Source: Candidatus Yanofskybacteria bacterium (lineage in GTDB: Bacteria > Patescibacteriota > Minisyncoccia > 2-02-FULL-40-12 > IGHO2-12-FULL-4). Taken from it: a stretch of 64,000 bases of DNA. The stretch covers positions 115,440 through 179,439 of the forward strand of contig JACPNK010000006.1 of the NCBI GenBank assembly GCA_016185525.1. Direction: 5' to 3'. Shown piece after piece: positions 2,774-39,519 of the stretch (its first letter is position 1; each line of letters opens with the position of its first letter). The position numbers and the translations under genes are program-made. Below the pieces are notes generated by a model. That model was given only the letters and a program-made list of their open reading frames with translations, did not search any database and was not told the origin of the DNA.

Positions 2774-4443
2774 TGTTGTCCCGTTGGAGAGTTAATATTT
2801 TTTTAATATCCATTTTGTTGGCATGGGGCCTGGTTTTTTACAGGCTTTTTTATTTATCGTACTTTCAACACGATGCTTTTATTAAGACGGCCGAGACGCA
2901 GTACCAGAATCAAAAAAGTAATTTGGTAAAAAGAGGAAGTATATATGTCAGCGATTTGAGCAATGGAGAGAAGGAATTGGTTGCAACTCAAAAAACTTAC
3001 GCCTTTATTTACGCTATACCGAAAGAATCAAAAGATCCGGCTTTGTCCGCCCAAAAACTGTCCGAGACGGTTGGTGTTTCCGCTGACCAGGCGCTTAAAC
3101 TGTTTGAAAAAAAAGATGACCCTTTTGAAATTGTTGAACGAAACCCAAGCGAGGCTCAACTGGATGCCGTGAGAAGTTTAAATTTTAAGGAAATAGCTAT
3201 TGGTTATGAAGAAAGAAGAGTTTATCCGAAAGGAAATTTTTTAAGCCAAGTTCTGGGTTTTCTGGGTTTTGAGGGGGATGAAAGGACGGGACAATACGGG
3301 GTGGAGTCTTTTTACAACGACTGGTTGTCGGGCAATGACTCAACCGACTCGTCTTTTTTTGGAAAGAAAAAGAGTCTGACCGCAGGCCGGGGCGATGATA
3401 TTATTCTTACGGTTGATAAAAATATCCAGCTTTTTGCGGAAGAAGAACTGGGCTATTTGATGAAAAAGTGGGATTCGGTTTCAGGTACGATCATAATTCA
3501 AGATCCCAGAGACGGTTCTATTATGGCCATGGCCGGGTCGCCAAGTTTTGATCCAAATAACTATGGCCAATACCGTTTGGAAGATTTTACCAATAAGTCA
3601 GTCCAAGAAATTTTTGAGCCGGGATCTTCTTTCAAGCCTATTACTTTAAGCGGAGCTTTGGATCAAAAAAAAATTACTCCGGAAACAACCTATTTTGATT
3701 CTGGCGAGGTGGATATAGCGGGCTATAAAATAAAAAATTTCAATGAAAAAAGTTTTGGTACGCAGACGATGAGCCAGGTGCTGGAGAAGTCTTTAAACAC
3801 GGGGGCTATGTTTGCTGAAGAAAAATTGGGGGACAAGAACTTTTTGAACTATATAATAAATTTCGGTTTTGGCCAGACATCAGGCATAGACTTGGCGGTT
3901 GAGTCCGCTGGCGACATATCAAACCTTTATTTCGGCAGAAAGATTAACTTTGCCACGGCTTCTTTCGGCCAAGGCATTGCGGTGACTCCGTTGCAGTTGA
4001 TAAATGCCTACTCTGCGTTGGCCAACGGGGGCAGGCTTTACAAGCCGTTCATAGTTAGAGAAAGAACCAAGTCCAGCGGTGAGTCAGTTAAAACTCAACC
4101 CGAACTGGTGGGTACGCCCATTTCTGAAAGAACTTCGTCACAAATCAAAGCCATGCTTGTAAAAGTTGTGGAAAACGGTTTTGATAAGGCTGTGGTGAGG
4201 GGCTATGATGTCGCCGGTAAGACCGGCACGGCCCAGATTGCCTCAAAAACCGGAGGTTACTCTGAAGAGTTTGTTCACGATATTGTCGGTTTTGCGCCGG
4301 CTTTTGATCCCAAGTTTGTGGTTTTGATAAAGTTGGAAAAGCCCAAGGGGATTAAATTTGCTTCTGACAGCCTTTCTCCCTCTTTGGGTAAAATAACCAA
4401 GTTTTTATTAAACTACTTTCAGATTCCTCCAACAAAGCAATGA
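2773..4443 (+). CDS. ftsI: penicillin-binding protein 2/3 (peptidoglycan transpeptidase FtsI)
   Basis: N-terminal TM and dimerisation domain, transpeptidase motifs (SxxK-like, SxN, KTGT = KTGTAQ); dcw context. Confidence 0.85.
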   Translation: MLSRWRVNIFLISILLAWGLVFYRLFYLSYFQHDAFIKTAETQYQNQKSNLVKRGSIYVSDLSNGEKELVATQKTYAFIYAIPKESKDPALSAQKLSETVGVSADQALKLFEKKDDPFEIVERNPSEAQLDAVRSLNFKEIAIGYEERRVYPKGNFLSQVLGFLGFEGDERTGQYGVESFYNDWLSGNDSTDSSFFGKKKSLTAGRGDDIILTVDKNIQLFAEEELGYLMKKWDSVSGTIIIQDPRDGSIMAMAGSPSFDPNNYGQYRLEDFTNKSVQEIFEPGSSFKPITLSGALDQKKITPETTYFDSGEVDIAGYKIKNFNEKSFGTQTMSQVLEKSLNTGAMFAEEKLGDKNFLNYIINFGFGQTSGIDLAVESAGDISNLYFGRKINFATASFGQGIAVTPLQLINAYSALANGGRLYKPFIVRERTKSSGESVKTQPELVGTPISERTSSQIKAMLVKVVENGFDKAVVRGYDVAGKTGTAQIASKTGGYSEEFVHDIVGFAPAFDPKFVVLIKLEKPKGIKFASDSLSPSLGKITKFLLNYFQIPPTKQ

Positions 4444-11725: not shown

Positions 11726-13117
11726 CTATCTTGGTTTGACCAAGGGTCCATGCTCCGTGTCTTCTATTTGGTAGCCTTTTGAACTTATTTGCCGGCGCAG
11801 GTCGTCGGCTTCGGAGTAGCGCTTGTCTCGTCGCAGTTTCTCGCGCGTATCAATCATATCCAAGATCTCATTCGGGGTCTTTTTTGTTTTTCTGGGGATT
11901 ATGCCCAAAATGTTGTTGAACTCTTCAAAAAGTTTTTTTATTTTTTTGGCTGATTTTTTATCAACTTTATTTTCAGCCAACAATGGATTTAACTCTTTTA
12001 TCATTTTAAAAATAGCGGCAATGGCTTGAGGAGTGTTAAAATCGTCGTCCATAGCTTCCAAGAATTCCTTCCTTGTTTCAAGCAAGATTTCCCCTGCGCC
12101 ACTGAGAAGTTGAACTTCTAAGCGGCGGATATTTGATAATTTGCGCAGAAATTCTTCGATTCTTTGGATACCGGCCCAAGAAGATTTTATCGCTTCTTCG
12201 CGATAATCAATAGGCGAACGGTAGTGAGTGGACAAAACAAGAAAACGCAAAGCCTCTGCGGAATATTTTTTAAGAGTGTCTCTGATGGTTATAAAGTTGC
12301 CAAGAGATTTGGACATTTTCTGGCCGTTGATAGTCAGAAAACCGGTGTGGAGCCAATACTTTACAAAAGGTTTCTTGCCGGAAATTGACTCCATTTGGGC
12401 TATTTCCGCTTCGTGGTGAGGGAAAATTAAATCTCTGGCTCCGCCGTGCAGATCGTACTGCTCCCCGAAATGCTTTTCGGTAATTGCCGTGTCTTCAATG
12501 TGCCAGCCGGGCCGCCCTTCTCCCAGTTCTGTTTTCCATTTTGGTTCTCCCGGTTTTGAAAACTTCCACAAGTTAAAATCGCCCTTGTTCTTTTTATTGA
12601 CGCTTTCGTCTATGCGACTTACGGCATCTTCCGCGCTTTCGGTTGTGCGACCGGAAAGCTTGCCATATTCCGGAAATTTTTTTAAGTCAAAGTAAAAACC
12701 GTCACTAGGAATTTCGTAAGCAAAGCCTTTTTCCTTCAGCCTTTTAACTTGCGATACGATTTGTTTGATATACTTTGTCGCCGGAGCGTATTTATAGACA
12801 CTGGTAATGCCAAGCGATTTTACATCTTGGTAGTAAGCTTTTTCAAATTCTTTAGCCAGAGTCAGCGGTTCTTTGTTTTCCTGTTTGGCTTTCGCGATTA
12901 TTTTATCTTCTATGTCGGTAATGTTCTGCAGGTATTTAACCCTGTAGCCTTTGTATTTGAGGTATTTGGCGATGACGTCAAAAGAAATATAAGTACGCGC
13001 GTGGCCGATATGCGAGTAATCATAAACCGTCGGTCCGCAGACAAACATATTCACCTTTTTGCCTTGGCGCGGCACAAATTCTTCTTTTTGTCTGGTTAGA
13101 GAATTATAGATTTGCAT
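11726..13117 (-). CDS. cysS: cysteinyl-tRNA synthetase
   Basis: HIGH (HIGHARTY) and KMSKS motifs with class I CysRS architecture. Confidence 0.9.
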   Translation of the reverse strand: MQIYNSLTRQKEEFVPRQGKKVNMFVCGPTVYDYSHIGHARTYISFDVIAKYLKYKGYRVKYLQNITDIEDKIIAKAKQENKEPLTLAKEFEKAYYQDVKSLGITSVYKYAPATKYIKQIVSQVKRLKEKGFAYEIPSDGFYFDLKKFPEYGKLSGRTTESAEDAVSRIDESVNKKNKGDFNLWKFSKPGEPKWKTELGEGRPGWHIEDTAITEKHFGEQYDLHGGARDLIFPHHEAEIAQMESISGKKPFVKYWLHTGFLTINGQKMSKSLGNFITIRDTLKKYSAEALRFLVLSTHYRSPIDYREEAIKSSWAGIQRIEEFLRKLSNIRRLEVQLLSGAGEILLETRKEFLEAMDDDFNTPQAIAAIFKMIKELNPLLAENKVDKKSAKKIKKLFEEFNNILGIIPRKTKKTPNEILDMIDTREKLRRDKRYSEADDLRRQISSKGYQIEDTEHGPLVKPR

Positions 13118-33500: not shown

Positions 33501-33809
33501 ATGTCGAGTTTTGTATTTCGTTGCACGACGAGAGGCAGCCATACTTTTTTGGAGTTTAATACTCCGGTGAAAATATTTGACTCTGTTAGCGGAGCACGCT
33601 TAATTCTGGAGGAATTACTTGACTTTGAGAAACAAAATCCGGACATGCATATTGTTGGTTGGAAACCGGAAACACACATGGCCACAAATACTAGATTTGG
33701 CATTCTCACCCCTGTTTGTTTTGGAATTTGGATTGACCATGAGCCAAGAGAAAAGGAACCTGAAGACTGTGACTTTGATGCTCTTGAAAGGGCACTAGGA
33801 CAAGATTGA
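33501..33809 (+). CDS. hypothetical small protein, paralog A (WIDHE family)
   Basis: 102 aa, ~35% identical to the 34750..35055 product; shared motifs IL..L..FE.QN, WIDHE and ALxQD. Confidence 0.6.
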   Translation: MSSFVFRCTTRGSHTFLEFNTPVKIFDSVSGARLILEELLDFEKQNPDMHIVGWKPETHMATNTRFGILTPVCFGIWIDHEPREKEPEDCDFDALERALGQD

Positions 33810-33833: not shown

Positions 33834-33847
33834 ATTTCTTAAAAATC

Positions 33848-33883
33848 TACTGAGAAGCTACTGAGAAGTTGAACTTATCAGTA
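33848..33883. repeat. REP palindrome with half-site direct repeat, 5' flank of the RAYT gene
   Basis: tactgagaag x2 half-sites, then the 25-bp palindrome tactgagaagttgaacttatcagta. Confidence 0.85.
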
Positions 33884-33905
33884 GAACATGTTAAATTTCT
33901 GAAAT

Positions 33906-34550
33906 ATGCATAAAGAATATTTTACCAATGGGGAATTTTACCATGTGTATAATCGCGGAAACAATAAGCGAAAAATTTTTTTGGATCAAAGAGACTTTAA
34001 AAGATTTTTTCAAAGCATACGGGAATTCAATTCGGAAGAACCGATTGGTAGTATATATCTTAATTCTTTTAAGGACGCCTCGCTTAGAAGTTCAACTTCT
34101 AAGTTAGTTGATTTTGTTTGTTTTTGTTTAAATCCAAATCATTATCATTTTATTCTCAAGCAACTAAAAGAAAGGGGTATTGAAAAGTTTTTACATAGAC
34201 TTGGCACGGGTTATACTAAATATTTTAATGAAAAACATAAATGCAGTGGCTCTCTTTTTCAGGGCAGGTATAAAGCGATACACTTAAACTCTAATGAATA
34301 CCTACTACATCTTAGTGCCTATGTGAATTTAAATTATGAAGTTCACCAACTGAGAAGTTCAACTTATCAGTGTGATTATAAATCTAGTTGGGCAGAATAT
34401 CAAAACAACTTGGTAGAAAGTATATGTAATAAAGACATTGTACTTTCTCAGTTTAGAAACTTTGATAAGTATAGGGAATTTGCAGTTAATGCTATTCAAA
34501 TAAGTAGGACCAAAAAAGATATGGAAAAGTTGTTATTGGAAGAGGTCTGA
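33906..34550 (+). CDS. REP-associated tyrosine transposase (RAYT; IS200-like HuH Y1 transposase, TnpA_REP)
   Basis: YHVYNRGNNKRKIF N-terminus, HuH motif NHYHFIL, GRYKA and Y..N C-terminal tyrosine region are typical of COG1943 RAYTs; the gene is flanked by inverted REPs. Confidence 0.8.
   Translation: MHKEYFTNGEFYHVYNRGNNKRKIFLDQRDFKRFFQSIREFNSEEPIGSIYLNSFKDASLRSSTSKLVDFVCFCLNPNHYHFILKQLKERGIEKFLHRLGTGYTKYFNEKHKCSGSLFQGRYKAIHLNSNEYLLHLSAYVNLNYEVHQLRSSTYQCDYKSSWAEYQNNLVESICNKDIVLSQFRNFDKYREFAVNAIQISRTKKDMEKLLLEEV
34083..34103. repeat. REP palindrome inside the RAYT coding sequence, copy 1 (in-frame)
   Basis: cttagaagttcaacttctaag encoding LRSSTSK. Confidence 0.85.
34350..34370. repeat. REP palindrome inside the RAYT coding sequence, copy 2 (in-frame)
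   Basis: ctgagaagttcaacttatcag encoding LRSSTYQ. Confidence 0.8.
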
Positions 34551-34557
34551 CTCTGAT

Positions 34558-34645
34558 CACTGATAAGTCACTGATAAGTTGAACTTCTCAGTAAAAACTT
34601 CTCAGTAAAAACTTCTCAGTAAACTTCTCAGTAAATTTCTCAGTA
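34558..34645. repeat. REP palindrome plus tandem half-site array, 3' flank of the RAYT gene
   Basis: cactgataagt x2, palindrome cactgataagttgaacttctcagta (inverted relative to the 5' REP), then (aa)aacttctcagta x4 tandem. Confidence 0.9.
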
Positions 34646-34749
34646 AAAGGTTTCGAACTATTACGCGGCAGTGCATCGTGTATTTGACTACTTGCAGGAT
34701 ATCTGCTAGGGTCGATTTGCTTTTTAATAATTAGTGAAAGGATAGAAAA

Positions 34750-35055
34750 ATGTCTCGTACGTCTCACATGTCTCATGTTTTCAAGAAAATACACAAGGGT
34801 GGTCGTTCGTTTTTCATGCTAACTGGCAGTAATAATATGGAGGCAGTAGGCAGGAAAATTTTAGATGTTCTTAGCGAATTTGAAGATCAAAATCTAGGCA
34901 AAAAGATAACAAACTGGAGGGCTAATATAAGGTATGTTACCGATGTGGAACCACCTTTCTTTTCTTGTGCTCTTTGGGTTGACCACGAGTCGTGTTGGTT
35001 AAGAGATAAGCCTCCGTCAACAAGCGAACTTGATAACGCTCTAGACCAAGATTAA
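34750..35055 (+). CDS. hypothetical small protein, paralog B (WVDHE family)
   Basis: 101 aa homologous to 33501..33809; RBS AAAGGA upstream. Confidence 0.6.
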   Translation: MSRTSHMSHVFKKIHKGGRSFFMLTGSNNMEAVGRKILDVLSEFEDQNLGKKITNWRANIRYVTDVEPPFFSCALWVDHESCWLRDKPPSTSELDNALDQD

Positions 35056-35299: not shown

Positions 35300-36547
35300 A
35301 TGGTCAACATCTTAATTATCGGCGGGGGATTTGGGGGAGTCAGGACTGCTTTGGACTTGAACAAGAAGTTGTCGTCTGAAGAGGCGTCAATTACTCTTGT
35401 TGACAGAAATAACTATCATCTGTTTTTGCCGTCGCTTTACGAAGTGGCATCATCTTTCGGTTTGGATTTAAACAAAGAGGAGATAAGGCTTAAAAAAACT
35501 ATTGCAATTCCTTTTGGCGAGATTTTTGAGGACACAAAAGTCAACTTTGTTCAAGCAGAAATCGTCAGCGTAGATTTGAATAAGAAAGAGGTACGGTCAA
35601 AAGGAGAAAAATTTTTTAGATACGATTATCTGGTTTTAGCTTTAGGGGCGGAGACGGAAACTTTTGGCACGGCTGGAGTCGTAGAATATGCTTACAAGTT
35701 CAAAAGCGTGGAGGAAGCTGTTTTTCTTAATAAAAAAATAAATGAGAAATACAAAGAGGCTGAAAGGGGTCAGCGTCCGCTACCTGTTAGATTTATTGTT
35801 GTCGGCGCGGGCTTTAACGGCATAGAACTTGCCGGAGAACTGGCATGCTGTACCAAAAAAATAGCGGAAGTTTGCAAGCTAAAAAATAAATGTACAGAGA
35901 TTAAGCTGGTTGAAGCGGCGCCCCAAATATTGCCCATGGTTTATGACAAAGAAAGGGCGATGATTCGTAAGAGACTGGAAAGGTTGGGGGTTGAGGTTTT
36001 GGAGAATTCTCCAATTGAACAGGTCGGGCCCGATTTTGTTCAAATTAAGAATGGTCCAAGGCTGAACGCTGATTTTATAATCTGGACCGCCGGTATACGG
36101 GCTTCTTCATTTTTAAAAAATATTTCCGGTTTAAAATTAGATGAAAGAGGAAAAATGACTGTTAACGAATTTATGCAGTCGTCAGACAGGCCGGAAGTTT
36201 TTGGGGTGGGGGACAGCGCTGTGTTTTTGGACCCAGCCACCAAAAAACCGGTTCCAGCGTTGGCTTACGTGGCGGTTGACCAAGGAAAAGTTGTTGCGGA
36301 AAATATCTTAAGAGTTTTAAAAAATAAAAGACCGCAAGAATACAGGCCATTCTATAATGTCTGGATAGCTCCGGTAGGAGGCAAGTTTGCCGTGGCGCGT
36401 TTGGGTAAGAATTTTACCGTTTCAGGGTTCTGGGGCTGGGTTTTGAGAGAACTGGTTGATTTCAGGTATATGTACTCAATCTTGCCGTTTTCAAAAGCTG
36501 TATCGCTAATGTCAGAGAATGTGGCGGTATTTACAAAAAACGACTAA
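35300..36547 (+). CDS. ndh: type II NADH dehydrogenase / FAD-dependent pyridine nucleotide-disulfide oxidoreductase
   Basis: GGGFGG and a second GAGFNG Rossmann motif; NDH-2 length. Confidence 0.75.
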   Translation: MVNILIIGGGFGGVRTALDLNKKLSSEEASITLVDRNNYHLFLPSLYEVASSFGLDLNKEEIRLKKTIAIPFGEIFEDTKVNFVQAEIVSVDLNKKEVRSKGEKFFRYDYLVLALGAETETFGTAGVVEYAYKFKSVEEAVFLNKKINEKYKEAERGQRPLPVRFIVVGAGFNGIELAGELACCTKKIAEVCKLKNKCTEIKLVEAAPQILPMVYDKERAMIRKRLERLGVEVLENSPIEQVGPDFVQIKNGPRLNADFIIWTAGIRASSFLKNISGLKLDERGKMTVNEFMQSSDRPEVFGVGDSAVFLDPATKKPVPALAYVAVDQGKVVAENILRVLKNKRPQEYRPFYNVWIAPVGGKFAVARLGKNFTVSGFWGWVLRELVDFRYMYSILPFSKAVSLMSENVAVFTKND

Positions 36548-36656
36548 TACACACTAAATAGGGGATAGTGTCAAGTAGACATAATCTTGGCACCTGTGGA
36601 TAACTTACTTGACACAACTTTATTAAGGTTGTCAAATAATAATATGGAAGGAGGGG

Positions 36657-37118
36657 ATGCGGGTCTTGAAAAACAATAACTACGGATTTGTAAATTCTAA
36701 ATTTAAAATTTTTTATTTAGTTTTTGTTTTATCAATATTATGTTTCTCTGCTGTTCCGGCCCGGGGCTACCCTATTGACGGCGCTGAAAATGCCGATAGC
36801 TATTCAAATTTTGGTCTTGAACAGGCCCGCAAGGTTAGTGGTTCGGTTAATGAGCTAATCAGATCTCTGCTTGGTCCTAGTTTTTCTTCTCTTACCTCGG
36901 TTGATGTTAACAAGAGTTTTGGTCCTGACCTTAATAAGCTTATACCCGGCGGTACGGGTTTAAGCTTTGATGATTTTATCAATATCAAGAGTTTTTCTAC
37001 TGACGACATATCGGGCAGTATTAAAGCAGTCGCCGTTCTTTTTATAAAGTTGATTGTTACGACTCTGTCAGTTACATCAGAAATTCTTAAACTGGTTTTA
37101 AGCCTGTTAACTCAATGA
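36657..37118 (+). CDS. secreted hypothetical protein
   Basis: Signal peptide and GGAGGG RBS. Confidence 0.5.
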   Translation: MRVLKNNNYGFVNSKFKIFYLVFVLSILCFSAVPARGYPIDGAENADSYSNFGLEQARKVSGSVNELIRSLLGPSFSSLTSVDVNKSFGPDLNKLIPGGTGLSFDDFINIKSFSTDDISGSIKAVAVLFIKLIVTTLSVTSEILKLVLSLLTQ

Positions 37119-37127
37119 TAGCCGAAT

Positions 37128-37177
37128 TATTCGGCTATCATGTCGCACAAGTGTGAATGTGCGACCCATGTTGTGTG
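37128..37177. terminator. tandem hairpins between convergent genes
   Basis: gatagccgaattattcggctatc and gtcgcacaagtgtgaatgtgcgac. Confidence 0.5.
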
Positions 37178-37180
37178 ACG

Positions 37181-37726
37181 TCATTTTCTGTTCTGGTTCC
37201 CCCATTTGAAAGGTTTTTCTCTTTGTGATTTATAAAACATCATTCTGTTTCTGATTTCTTGAAGTTTTTTGTGGTCAAGGCCGTTCATTTCTTTTTTTGT
37301 AAATCCTCTCTGGCCTTTTGTAACATTTAAACCCTCTCTTCTGTTTTTGTTTACTATTTTAACCGCGCAGCTCCATAGTTGGAAGTCAATCCCCTTTTTT
37401 GCGTAGAGTTTATGTCTTTTAAAAAATGGTATAATTTTTTCTACTAGATCTTTCGGATTTTGGACCGAGAATCTAACCTGATTCTGTTTTTTTATTATAA
37501 CGACCGACCCACAGCCAAAAGTTTCTTTGATTAAGTTTAATATGTTAAAATCGTCAGATCTTAAAACAATGGCAAATTCAGTATTCCAGTAAAAATACTC
37601 TCGGAATTTTTTATTGTTCTTATTTTGTTTTTTATCCCTTCTAAATTTAAGAGCAAAACAACCCTCCCCGTCTACAAAGCCAGCTATGTAATTGCCAGGC
37701 AACTTAGCGACTGTATTTTTATCCAT
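37181..37726 (-). CDS. free-standing LAGLIDADG homing endonuclease
   Basis: LAGLIDADG motif (YIAGFVDGEGCF) 12 aa after the internal Met; the track ORF extends to 37792; ~181 aa, the single-motif homodimeric class. Confidence 0.8.
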   Translation of the reverse strand: MDKNTVAKLPGNYIAGFVDGEGCFALKFRRDKKQNKNNKKFREYFYWNTEFAIVLRSDDFNILNLIKETFGCGSVVIIKKQNQVRFSVQNPKDLVEKIIPFFKRHKLYAKKGIDFQLWSCAVKIVNKNRREGLNVTKGQRGFTKKEMNGLDHKKLQEIRNRMMFYKSQREKPFKWGNQNRK

Positions 37727-37824
37727 ATTATAAATTATACTACAATCACATTGCGTCGCACAAAAGTTTAAAACGAAGGTTATCAACAGCAACCAAAAAG
37801 TAAAAAACTCCTTTGGTTAGGAGT

Positions 37825-39519
37825 CTACAATTCGTCAATTAATTTTTTAAATTTTTCTATAATTTCTTTTTTTCTGGGTTTAAGCGTCGGAGTTAAGATT
37901 AAATCTGTTTGGCTGCTTAAAATCGCTATGTTGCCTATTTTCATTAATCCCTTCCCTATCGCCCCGGTTTTGGACTTTAGAGTTTCGTGAAGTTTCGCAA
38001 GACCTTTTTTGTCAGAGGGTCTGTTGTTTAAAAAAATGAGAGCAATTTGATACGGTTTGTTTTTTCCACATATGACAACTTCTGCTTGGGGGTCAACGTC
38101 TCTTATTTTGTCCTTAACTTCTTGCTCCAGTTTCTGGATGCTTTCTCCTGTCACGTACTCCCCTTGTGCCGTTTTGTAGCCTTCGCCGATTCTTCCTGTT
38201 ATAGATATGGTTTTGTTTGAAAAGTTAAACTTTCCAGTGTCTTCAGTATGATAGAGCCGTTCTCGCAACGGTTCTTCCGTGGGCGGATGGGTTTGGTAAA
38301 TTTTTTCTTCAAAATGGTTTTCATTGGCTTTTGGGTTGTTGTAGTAGCCGAGCATGACGGCTTTTCCTGTTACCACGATTTCTTTGCTGAAAGGTTCAAG
38401 AAAAACTTGGTTTGTGTTTCCTATAACCGCACCGTTCAAGAGTAGCGGTCCGGCCGTTTCCGTTTGGCCGTAAATGTCCATTATGTTTAGACCAAGTTTG
38501 CGGAAAAAATTAATCTCGTGGCGGCTTATTTCCGATCCGGCGCTGATTGCGATTCTTGTATGATCTAGGCCGAGCTCTTGTTTAATTTTGTCTTTAAGAA
38601 AATAAATCGGGACTAATCCGGCTAACTTACCGGCAAGTTTTAGTTTTTCTTTGACTCCGGTCTCAATGTTTATCCAAACTTTGGGTACGCCCAAAAAAGC
38701 GGTTGGCCTTACCCTTTTGAGTATTGACGTAAATTTTTCTTTCAGTTTTTCCCTGTCGGTTGAAAATTCGGTAAAGTATACCGTATATCCTCCGATTAAC
38801 TGGCCAAAAAAAGAGGCAATAAGTTCAGAAATGTGTCCCAATGTCATATAAGATAAAACTCTATCTTCGGGACCAATTTGCAAGGCTTTAATTACAGCCT
38901 TGGTTCTGTCTAAGATATTTTCATGCGACAGCATCACTCCCTTTGGTCCGCCGGTGGTGCCGGAAGTGTAGGGCATTATCAGTAGGCGGTTTGGGTTGCG
39001 GACTTTGTCATTGTGGTAAAGCCTTTTAACCCCTTTGTTTTTGCATATCTTTTTTCCCAATGCCAGTAACTGTTCAACTGTTATTGTGGTGTGGCCATTT
39101 TCTTTGTATTCATCTGCCAAACACTCACTGATGAGAGTAATTTTAGGTTGGCAATGGTCTAAGATGGCCTTGACTTTGTCAGGCTCTTTTAAAAGCATGG
39201 GGTGTATCGGCACGGGTACCCCCCCTGCCATAATAATTCCCAGAATAGTGAAAAAAGATTCCGGCAGATTTACCGGTACTATGGCGACAAAGTTTTCTTT
39301 TTCTGATTTTGACGGGTCAACTAAATTTAAGTCTTGCAAAGCGATTGCCGCTGAAAATGCGTGACAGTGCAAGTAATCTTCCCAAGAGTATTTTTCTTTA
39401 GTGCCGTCTTTTTTAAGCAAGACCAAGGCCGGTAACTGATGACCTTTTCTTCTTAATTCTTCTTCCTTTTCAAAGAGAGTAGTAATAATATCTGCCACTT
39501 TCCCGTCCCCTATTTTCAA
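37825..39519 (-). CDS. AMP-dependent synthetase/ligase (long-chain fatty acid--CoA ligase-like)
   Basis: AMP-binding motif YTSGTTGGPKGV and an acyl-activating fold. Confidence 0.8.
   Translation of the reverse strand: MKIGDGKVADIITTLFEKEEELRRKGHQLPALVLLKKDGTKEKYSWEDYLHCHAFSAAIALQDLNLVDPSKSEKENFVAIVPVNLPESFFTILGIIMAGGVPVPIHPMLLKEPDKVKAILDHCQPKITLISECLADEYKENGHTTITVEQLLALGKKICKNKGVKRLYHNDKVRNPNRLLIMPYTSGTTGGPKGVMLSHENILDRTKAVIKALQIGPEDRVLSYMTLGHISELIASFFGQLIGGYTVYFTEFSTDREKLKEKFTSILKRVRPTAFLGVPKVWINIETGVKEKLKLAGKLAGLVPIYFLKDKIKQELGLDHTRIAISAGSEISRHEINFFRKLGLNIMDIYGQTETAGPLLLNGAVIGNTNQVFLEPFSKEIVVTGKAVMLGYYNNPKANENHFEEKIYQTHPPTEEPLRERLYHTEDTGKFNFSNKTISITGRIGEGYKTAQGEYVTGESIQKLEQEVKDKIRDVDPQAEVVICGKNKPYQIALIFLNNRPSDKKGLAKLHETLKSKTGAIGKGLMKIGNIAILSSQTDLILTPTLKPRKKEIIEKFKKLIDEL

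Follow-up and report, generated by a model that had tools for sequence, protein, structure and literature searches.

Single-domain LAGLIDADG homing endonucleases such as I-CreI, I-CeuI, I-TnaI (PDB 5gkk) and I-ShaI are encoded inside group I introns or insertions in rRNA genes, and their target is the insertion point in the intron-less rRNA gene. I-ShaI is an enzyme of the candidate phyla radiation (CPR) that is active as a homodimer (PMC11270868), and CPR LAGLIDADG enzymes have already been described in the literature in rRNA and tRNA insertions. Endonuclease genes can also stand free. The Seg and Mob endonucleases of phage T4 spread by intronless homing (PMC2988022), and free-standing LAGLIDADG open reading frames (ORFs) are known in fungal mitochondrial and algal chloroplast genomes (e.g. 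PMC7487136). The target sites of free-standing homing endonucleases are usually unknown and are hard to guess. Here we describe a LAGLIDADG gene in a stretch of 64,000 nucleotides (the window) from contig JACPNK010000006.1, part of the genome of a Candidatus Yanofskybacteria bacterium, a groundwater member of the Patescibacteria (CPR). It is a free-standing and mobile homing endonuclease gene that some close relatives carry and others lack at the same spacer. Comparison of the alleles with and without the gene points to one 24-bp sequence as the candidate homing site and to natural candidate resistant variants of it. The specificity of the enzyme, its cut position and its possible self-repression are thus directly testable.

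The endonuclease gene occupies positions 37181..37726 on the minus strand and encodes an intact ORF of 181 amino acids with the N-terminus MDKNTVAKLPGNYIAGFVDGEGCF. A list of ORFs in the window placed the start at a TTG codon at 37792; the ATG at 37726 was preferred because the homologs and the identical NCBI protein P0001 support it. P0001 is 100% identical to the window endonuclease and is annotated as a LAGLIDADG family homing endonuclease of Candidatus Yanofskybacteria bacterium, and in this sense the protein is already known from public databases. The protein matched LAGLIDADG_1 (PF00961) over residues 14-119 with an E-value of 3.3e-21 (76.5 bits, cut-off 23.1). It has a single LAGLIDADG motif, YIAGFVDGEGCF, as a preliminary description of this DNA had proposed, and one domain per chain. 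The homologs number roughly 217 in all, and conservation was assessed in 119 homologs of 150-210 amino acids, all of them intact and strongly conserved. E21 was conserved in 100%, D19 in 98% and K110 and K111 in 99-100% of these sequences. The motif Y13-x-A-G-F-V-D19-G-E21-G-C-F was nearly invariant, as were D114 and W118. E21 occupies what we take to be the position of the catalytic D20 of I-CreI.

A model of the endonuclease made with AlphaFold2 (AF2; predicted local distance difference test, pLDDT, 87.8) exhibited the LAGLIDADG core fold (alpha-beta-beta-alpha-beta-beta-alpha), with helices at residues 11-21, 57-70 and 91-104 and strands at residues 22-34, 41-56, 74-78 and 83-88. A Foldseek search with the model returned structures of the I-OnuI family and the single-domain I-TnaI with a probability of 1.0 and a target-normalised template modeling (TM) score of 0.76. 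In a sequence search of the PDB the best match was I-PanMI (2e-22), and identity to solved structures was 21-35%. The subfamily comprises 17 clusters at 50% identity (E<=1e-30) against a LAGLIDADG_1 background of 578 (E<=1e-10). The window gene is thus an intact single-domain LAGLIDADG enzyme with conserved catalytic residues. I-CreI, I-CeuI, I-TnaI and I-ShaI have, like the window enzyme, one LAGLIDADG_1 domain in ~180 amino acids, a catalytic acidic residue and the same core fold, and by analogy with them we presume that the window enzyme acts as a homodimer. Unlike those enzymes, it has a conserved C-terminal extension (~130-176) outside the Pfam domain. Unlike their genes, the window gene lies free in a spacer between protein genes, beside its candidate site and not within it. 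The stretch beyond the Pfam domain (residues ~130-181; window 37181..37336) is conserved across the subfamily at G141-F142, D151, L155, M162, Y165-K166 and W175. In the model it forms a helix at residues 149-165 and is elsewhere of lower confidence; it might add DNA contacts or a dimer contact. The preliminary description had proposed a look for additional copies of the gene; tblastn found none in the window.

Four distinct loci lack the gene, namely L001, from a Paceibacterota genome assembled from a metagenome, L022/L023, L024, from a Yanofskybacteria genome, and L025. Their gene order is Peptidase_M23, Pyr_redox_2, a small protein, an AMP-binding gene, a 246-aa protein, L27 and L9, and the spacer between the small-protein gene and the AMP-binding gene measures 121-195 nt. 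No endonuclease remnant was detected in these loci by tblastn (all matches had E>0.7 and were scattered). Their flanking proteins are 84-94% identical to those of the window in L001, L022 and L024 and 68-75% identical in L025; between L024 and the window the values are 94% for M23 and 88% for Pyr_redox. In L001, L022 and L025 an ortholog of the small-protein gene (53-64% identity) lies directly opposite the AMP-binding gene, and L024 has at the same position a truncated 97-aa homolog with 71% identity over 60% of the query. Scans of genomes and metagenomes with the AMP-binding protein yielded one close locus (L001), the eight others being distant AMP-binding enzymes. Carriers of the gene identical to the window were found in the Logan contigs L020 and L021, L020 being 100% identical over 4.5 kb. 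The strain of the window is also contained in the read sets SRR12113383 and SRR12113384.

In the window the endonuclease gene is placed between the same two neighbors. The 153-aa small-protein gene (36657..37118, plus strand; hydrophobic N-terminus or predicted signal peptide, no Pfam match) converges on it, and the AMP-binding, acyl-CoA-synthetase-like gene (37825..39519, minus strand; Pfam E=6.5e-46) lies upstream of it on the same strand. The preliminary description had likewise put the gene alone between a secreted-protein gene and an acyl-CoA synthetase gene. A terminator scan located the intrinsic terminator of the AMP-binding gene, AGACTCCTAACCAAAGGAGTTTTTT, at 37797..37826 on the minus strand. 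Alignment with the gene-less loci L001, L022 and L024 extends this far and no further, so the terminator delimits the inserted or replaced segment at this end. Comparison of the syntenic loci, proposed at the outset as a check, thus found the gene missing from the spacers of all four gene-less loci, with ~630 bp of the window (37166-37796) replacing ~36 nt in L001.

Every gene-less spacer holds a 24-bp palindrome that stands alone and is nearly perfect. It reads GTCGCACAAT-GTAG-GTTGTGCGAC in L001 and L022 (full L001-type site GTCGCACAATGTAGGTTGTGCGAC), GTCGTACAAT-GTAG-GTTGTACGAC in L024, with C>T and G>A changes that mirror each other across the arms, and GTCTTACAAT-GTAG-GTTGTGCGAC in L025. 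Half-sites vary between C and T at arm position 5. The symmetry scores of these sites are 9, 9, 9 and 7 of 10, and the center is GTAG throughout. The corresponding candidate homing site of the window is a 24-bp pseudo-palindrome at 37142..37165, which starts 15 nt past the stop codon of the endonuclease gene and reads GTCGCACATT-CACA-CTTGTGCGAC on the gene strand. Both arms are kept and the center differs (CACA as against GTAG in the gene-less loci). The layout is 10+4+10, in which 9-mers form the half-sites. Some spacers contain further half-site-like copies. The L022 spacer (2897-3074) has a further TGTGCGAC and one ATATGCGAC downstream of the palindrome, and the L025 spacer (3453-3647) has GTTGTGCGAT ~100 nt upstream of the palindrome, within another hairpin. 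These extra copies may be iterated binding sites or relics of a lost cassette. In L025 a perfect 23-bp inverted repeat, ACATTGTAAGACATACTAAATAA / TTATTTAGTATGTCTTACAATGT, spans the left arm of the site and part of its center.

The half-site had come to notice as a 9-mer, GTCGCACAA, that brackets the gene. On the plus strand it occurs at 37142-37150 and 37755-37763, respectively +30 and -28 nt from the endonuclease ORF. The preliminary description had the second position right and placed the first at 37152..37160, 10 positions too high; the spacing is accordingly 613 bp and not 603 bp. It had also assigned one copy to a hairpin, and the low-coordinate copy is indeed an arm of a perfect 8+8 hairpin, GTCGCACA-AGTGTGAA-TGTGCGAC, at 37142-37165. 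This 8+8 pattern occurs once in the 64-kb window and in 0 of 100 shuffles, and the local fold at the palindrome has z = -4.5 to -6.7. Taken alone the 9-mer repeat is marginally unusual and is weak evidence. The window has 3 copies of GTCGCACAA in 64 kb against 0.33 expected, and there are two other exact 9-mer repeats in the same 1.1 kb. A word of at least 9 nt shared by the two spacers had a probability of 0.010 in shuffled sequence; a sliding control, run on real sequence of the window, gave 0.055. The repeat is nevertheless not due to chance, because homologous genes at eight further distinct loci have the motif in their flanks as well. In ~274 kb of fetched DNA, the 8-mer was found almost exclusively at these flanking positions. 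Where related genomes have the gene at the same position, the same repeat accompanies it, and within the window the 9-mer is a rare sequence. The third exact copy, at 12643-12651 on the minus strand, has no partner arm in view nearby and is probably a chance occurrence.

The preliminary description took the 9-bp direct repeats to bound an insertion, which would make them a target-site duplication or cassette ends left by transposition or illegitimate recombination. The exact 9-mers around the ORF and the absence of the ~630-bp segment from related genomes agree with this, and in L029 and L031 too the gene has a direct TGTGCGAC copy on either side. However, the gene-less loci already hold the motif twice, as an inverted pair, in the form of the 24-bp palindrome, and the repeat is therefore not a duplication made on insertion. 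The other arm of the palindrome lies between the repeat copies, beside the downstream copy, whereas a duplication would place it upstream of the first copy, where there is a conserved cassette leader and not host flank. The same motif occurs at different loci, the unit contains no transposase, and in L010, L014 and L017 the downstream copy is degraded with the opposite arm kept. We regard a target-site duplication as very improbable, since the architecture of the gene-less loci already contradicts it. Excision or integration between the direct repeats was also rejected. Such recombination would leave a lone half-site where the gene is missing, or else put a full palindrome upstream of the gene, and neither was seen.

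The gene is carried by nine distinct loci: the window, L013, L010/L011, L012, L014-L016, L017-L019, L026-L028 (Doudnabacteria), L029 (Jorgensenbacteria) and L031 (Liptonbacteria). The homologs at the eight further loci are 50-72% identical to the window endonuclease. Most carrier loci share the same broad neighborhood (M23, Pyr_redox_2, a 245-aa protein and L27), in which the endonuclease gene is often divergent from an RNase_H_2/DNA_pol_B_exo2-like gene. The L029 homolog has an unrelated gene context, yet carries both motifs. In all nine carrier loci an altered but recognizable 24-mer is located 0-20 nt after the stop codon. Eight of these sites were scored, the L013 site being cut by the contig end, and their symmetry scores are 8, 6, 7, 6, 5, 6, 5 and 4 of 10. 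The center is replaced by AACT in L010 and L014, where the right arm has also decayed. Decay affects the right arm in L017 and the left arm in L029 and L031, and in L012 both arms have changed together (CGCATAA / TTATGCG). Every scored carrier site of this small, phylogenetically clustered sample departs from the near-perfect GTAG form in the center, in one arm or in both arms.

Three of the carrier loci, L010, L014 and L017, provide evidence that the gene has moved. Between L010 and L014 the endonucleases are 84% identical, the exonuclease-like proteins 61% and the Pyr_redox proteins 50%. Between L010 and L017 the corresponding value for the endonuclease is 62%, with 83% for the exonuclease-like protein and 76% for the small protein. 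Sliding nucleotide identity between L010 and L014 is 35-65% in the flanks and 77-93% from the leader to the stop codon. Between L010 and L017 it is 75-92% in the flanks and 55-68% from ~50-80 nt inside the ORF to ~30 nt past the palindrome. From this reciprocal mosaic it follows that L010 is an L017-like backbone with an L014-like gene and an L014-like site. Each of the three haplotypes came from two or three assemblies made independently, which speaks against chimeras. The endonuclease gene and the adjacent 3' site have thus been swapped between lineages as a block. In addition, the G+C content of the endonuclease gene is 4-15 points below that of the rest of the locus in 9/9 carrier loci. 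The proposal of a discrete mobile cassette is borne out by the absence of the gene from the same spacer in four related loci, its exchange between lineages and its lower G+C content.

We consider it somewhat probable that the window gene is a free-standing gene for a homodimeric LAGLIDADG enzyme that homes among related Paceibacteria, with the palindrome as cut site and the promoter-side copy of the half-site as operator. On this model, which is built from sequence comparison, double-strand-break repair at one chromosomal spacer (intronless homing) would carry the gene from one related Paceibacteria genome to another. A break near the position of the gene in a gene-less genome would be repaired from a carrier, and the gene would be copied in together with neighboring DNA. 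The 24-bp palindrome would be the candidate recognition and cleavage site of the enzyme. Gene-less alleles, with their near-perfect site and GTAG center, would be cuttable, and the damaged site 0-20 nt after the stop codon, co-converted with the endonuclease gene, would shield a carrier against self-cleavage. The lone half-site of the promoter spacer would serve the enzyme as an operator for self-repression, after the model of I-TevI. The observations match predictions of the model in that the sites are intact without the gene and variously damaged with it, and in that the conversion tract in L010 ends just past the site. Homodimeric enzymes of the LAGLIDADG_1 type cut pseudo-palindromic sites of ~22 bp and leave 3' overhangs of 4 nt, and the site of the I-CreI homodimer is built as 9+4+9. 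The 10+4+10 layout resembles such homodimeric LAGLIDADG sites, by which analogy the palindrome is a candidate site. The window locus is also like those of homodimeric LAGLIDADG enzymes in that a candidate site, pseudo-palindromic around a non-palindromic center of 4 bp, adjoins the gene.

Several points weigh against homing at the palindrome. The palindrome is tied to the enzyme by its adjacency, by its symmetry and by the way intact sites differ from damaged ones. This difference sets 3-4 independent gene-less sites from one sublineage against 8 carrier sites and is confounded by phylogeny; the consensus, moreover, was defined from the gene-less sites, although the symmetry score is independent of it. 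The symmetric positions extend from +/-4 to +/-12 (in L001 to +/-14), slightly wider than the I-CreI contacts at +/-3 to +/-11. A homodimer is expected to bind a lone half-site poorly, and no full promoter was called by the scan around the half-site in the window, where the -35 candidate TTGTGC is weak, or in L017. The gene is also more conserved than its neighbors (62% against 43-51%, window versus L014), and such conservation across deep divergence fits long vertical residence under selection. Finally, the arms of the window site are perfect and the loop alone is changed, as a structure-constrained hairpin would show. In L001 and L024 the RNA of the site forms a stem of 12 bp closed by a GUAG loop, and the strict conservation of an intergenic palindrome where the enzyme is absent implies that it serves the host.

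The palindrome could accordingly be a host RNA or DNA hairpin, acting as a 3'-end stabilizer or an atypical terminator for convergent genes, which the endonuclease merely adjoins while it cuts elsewhere or cuts nothing; the promoter-side copy would then be a promoter element or the relic of an old local duplication. A stable stem-loop is found in the window, L001, L024 and L012. The window retains the stem with a changed loop, L024 and L012 have compensatory changes on both arms, the palindrome is conserved in gene-less genomes, and its location fits a 3' hairpin of the small-protein gene. On the other hand, in no locus does a T-run follow the palindrome or was a terminator called there, and the neighboring AMP-binding gene has a classical terminator. 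The 8-nt loop ATGTAGGT is identical in L001, L022, L024, L025 and L012. In L010, L014, L017, L029 and L031 the stem is lost while the sequence similarity of one arm persists, and in L029 the element accompanies the gene into a different gene context. A host hairpin also leaves unexplained the strictly conserved lone half-site in promoter DNA that is probably not transcribed. We therefore judge this explanation unlikely, though it deserves serious consideration. The two readings of the palindrome are, moreover, compatible, because homing endonucleases typically target sequences that the host must conserve.

Another explanation is that the LAGLIDADG protein has been domesticated as a site-specific regulator that binds DNA, or as a repair factor, and is inherited vertically at this locus, with the TTGTGCGAC motifs (the half-site as read on the gene strand) as its operators and with absences due to gene loss. 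The same neighborhood (GluRS, Peptidase_M23, Pyr_redox_2 and L27) does recur from Yanofskybacteria to Liptonbacteria and Doudnabacteria. Conservation of the gene exceeds that of its neighbors, 119/119 homologs are intact and strongly conserved, and some spacers, such as that of L022, contain several half-site copies. Pure DNA binding, however, would need neither the invariant catalytic acidic residue nor the lysines. The reciprocal mosaic represents horizontal exchange of a gene block, the G+C content of the gene is below that of the host in 9/9 loci, the closest relatives have neither gene nor remnant, and a homolog with the same motifs stands in the unrelated context of L029. We regard domestication as improbable and retain intronless homing as the preferred reading.

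The promoter-side half-site, TTGTGCGAC on the gene strand, is the high-coordinate 9-mer (37755..37763, minus strand) and ends 28 nt before the ATG. It is 9/9 identical in 7/9 distinct carrier loci, ending 16-28 nt before the ATG, while the surrounding leader varies. The exceptions are L013, which carries TTGTACGAC instead, and L026, in which the gene abuts M23 and no half-site copy is present. In the latter group (L026-L028; 2990-3560) the homolog begins 8 nt after the Peptidase_M23 stop codon without a promoter half-site and is probably co-transcribed with M23; its G+C content is 36.5% against 51.5% in the rest of the locus. The half-site lies inside the 18-nt spacer of the best promoter-like match, TTGACT-18-TAAAAT in L012 and TTGATT-18-TATAAT in L029. 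In the window two overlapping TATAAT boxes can be read from the sequence directly before the ATG, at 37734-37739 and 37727-37732 (together 37727..37739, minus strand), and in homologous loci a TAAAAT or TATAAT box precedes the ATG by 6-9 nt. Taking the window and these loci together, 0-9 nt separate the -10-like box from the ATG. In no locus can a Shine-Dalgarno sequence be seen before the ATG, and the endonuclease mRNA is therefore probably leaderless or nearly so, as the sequence suggests for the mRNAs of the family generally. Since the -10 box lies between the motif and the ATG, the upstream motif is probably not transcribed. Pairing between the 5' and 3' untranslated regions of the mRNA through the two 9-mers was considered and rejected; covariation that would preserve such pairing is missing among the variants of L013, L012 and L017. 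Beyond the half-site, the conserved cassette leader TGTTGATAACCTTCGTTTTAAACTT (37764..37788, minus strand) is shared with L013, the locus of the closest homolog, where it reads TTGTTGATAACTTTCGTTTAACTTCTTTGTACGAC and directly follows a different upstream terminator.

Inspection of the upstream stretches showed that no second half-site is present at the proper distance from the promoter copy. The putative operator thus resembles that of I-TevI in that part of a candidate homing site overlaps the promoter of the endonuclease, and, with only one half-site, it lacks what cleavage would require. It differs from it in that I-TevI is a monomeric GIY-YIG enzyme with a separate DNA-binding domain, whereas here a presumed homodimer would meet a single half-site. 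To our knowledge, from a limited literature search, no LAGLIDADG example of autorepression of the I-TevI type exists. The I-TevI operator itself overlaps the enzyme's own promoter and resembles its homing site (PMC2988022).

The locus also resembles the free-standing genes of T4. Like those of Seg and Mob, the gene stands between host genes, occurs in some relatives and not in others, and has its cleavage site, here a candidate, outside the gene. As with them, it appears to spread by double-strand-break repair with co-conversion of flanks, and the mosaic of L010, L014 and L017 is consistent with a co-conversion tract. The T4 enzymes, however, are of the GIY-YIG or HNH type and belong to phage genomes, whereas the window enzyme is a LAGLIDADG protein of a CPR chromosome. 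The candidate site, unlike those of Seg and Mob, is very near the gene (0-20 nt from the stop codon). Among viral contigs we found one relative of the endonuclease, at 34% identity (L030), and no match to the palindrome. A tblastn search of a phage collection gave no close homolog, the best matches having 27-28% identity and lying under methylase annotations. The free-standing LAGLIDADG ORFs of organelles are, like the window gene, intergenic and outside introns. They are often double-motif or degenerate and generally have no defined target, in contrast to the window gene, which is bacterial and single-motif and has a conserved architecture of flanking sites.

A limited full-text search of the literature found no description of chromosomal free-standing LAGLIDADG cassettes of this family in CPR bacteria, nor of the architecture that combines a palindrome with a promoter half-site. 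A bolder account would have this be the first natural case of LAGLIDADG intronless homing in a bacterial chromosome, with a homing site that can be taken straight from the comparison of genomes, namely a 24-bp palindrome that is also a hairpin needed by the host, autoregulation through the half-site in a leaderless promoter, and carriers that escaped self-cleavage by destroying different parts of the site; as a whole we hold this to be tentative and rather unlikely. If homing is the correct reading, a small homodimeric LAGLIDADG scaffold with a near-perfect palindromic site joins the meganuclease repertoire, knowledge of LAGLIDADG genes, which are abundant in CPR/Patescibacteria, extends beyond rRNA and tRNA introns, and homing-driven mosaicism is documented in the reduced genomes of uncultured bacteria. 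If the palindrome is instead a host hairpin, the locus is an ordinary annotated homing endonuclease gene beside a conserved 3' hairpin.

The genes on either side of the endonuclease gene are full-length in loci with and without it. A search of the whole window against Rfam at the gathering score gave nothing beyond one tRNA elsewhere. At E<=10, positions 36400-38400 gave nothing intron-like, the matches being to five unrelated families at E 4.7-8.3 (chance level). The endonuclease gene is therefore free-standing, in neither an intron nor an intein, as the preliminary description had it. That description had also entertained a degraded group I intron. A remnant of such an intron or of an intein, or alternatively transport of the gene as cargo of a nearby IS200/Y1-type transposase through hairpin ends, could be suggested by the presence of a Y1_Tnp gene 3 kb away, by the hairpins at one end and by the usual location of CPR LAGLIDADG genes in rRNA insertions and group I introns (PMC11270868). 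However, no intron-like Rfam match was obtained in the region searched at E<=10, and no host gene is interrupted, both neighbors being complete with and without the gene. Furthermore, the Y1_Tnp gene has its own, unrelated palindromic repeat, and the 24-bp palindrome occurs once in 64 kb. Both proposals are essentially excluded. The same single occurrence of the palindrome and the unrelated Y1_Tnp repeat led us to reject a hairpin of the REP/Y1-transposase type. An integron attC-like site was also rejected, there being no integrase and one palindrome in 64 kb.

A second palindrome abuts the 24-bp site in the window. It is a perfect 13+13 palindrome, ATGATAGCCGAAT-T-ATTCGGCTATCAT, at 37115..37141, which overlaps the stop codon of the small-protein gene and folds as a 12-bp stem. 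No T-run follows it and the terminator scan makes no call there; it is probably a 3' hairpin for the convergent genes. It is not found in L001, L022, L024 or L025, L022 having just GCCGAAT beside its extra TGTGCGAC copy.

Other parts of the neighborhood also vary. The AMP-binding gene is mosaic. Its identity to that of the window is 87-88% in L001 and L022. The value falls to 45-48% in L024 (4416-6015), where the gene is broken into two ORFs although the remaining genes are 87-94% identical to those of the window. In more distant loci this slot beside the palindrome holds an RNase_H_2/DNA_pol_B_exo2-like (exonuclease-like) gene, and a Mur ligase gene is also found in neighboring slots elsewhere. 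The place beside the palindrome has the appearance of a hot spot of recombination.

The Y1_Tnp ORF (33906..34550, plus strand; IS200/RAYT-like, Pfam E=2.6e-6) belongs to a region at 33835-34660, ~3 kb from the endonuclease gene. It is flanked by and contains a palindromic unit of 22-24 nt, ACTGAGAAGTTGAACTTATCAGT, with copies at 33859-33882, 34083-34104, 34349-34372 and 34569-34592. The two central copies (34083-34104 and 34349-34372) lie inside the ORF and appear to encode a repeated LRSST peptide. The gene is followed by a tandem array of five AAACTTCTCAGTAAA units at 34581-34647. Neither L024 nor L025 has a Y1_Tnp gene between Peptidase_M23 and Pyr_redox_2, which makes it a second presence/absence insertion 3 kb from the endonuclease gene. 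Two paralogous ORFs of ~100 amino acids, at 33501..33809 and 34750..35055, bracket the Y1_Tnp gene. They are 29% identical and without a Pfam match, and we consider the pair to be old. L024 and L025 have a single homolog at the same place, and the window ORF at 33501..33809 is nearer to the L025 homolog (52%) than to its neighboring paralog.

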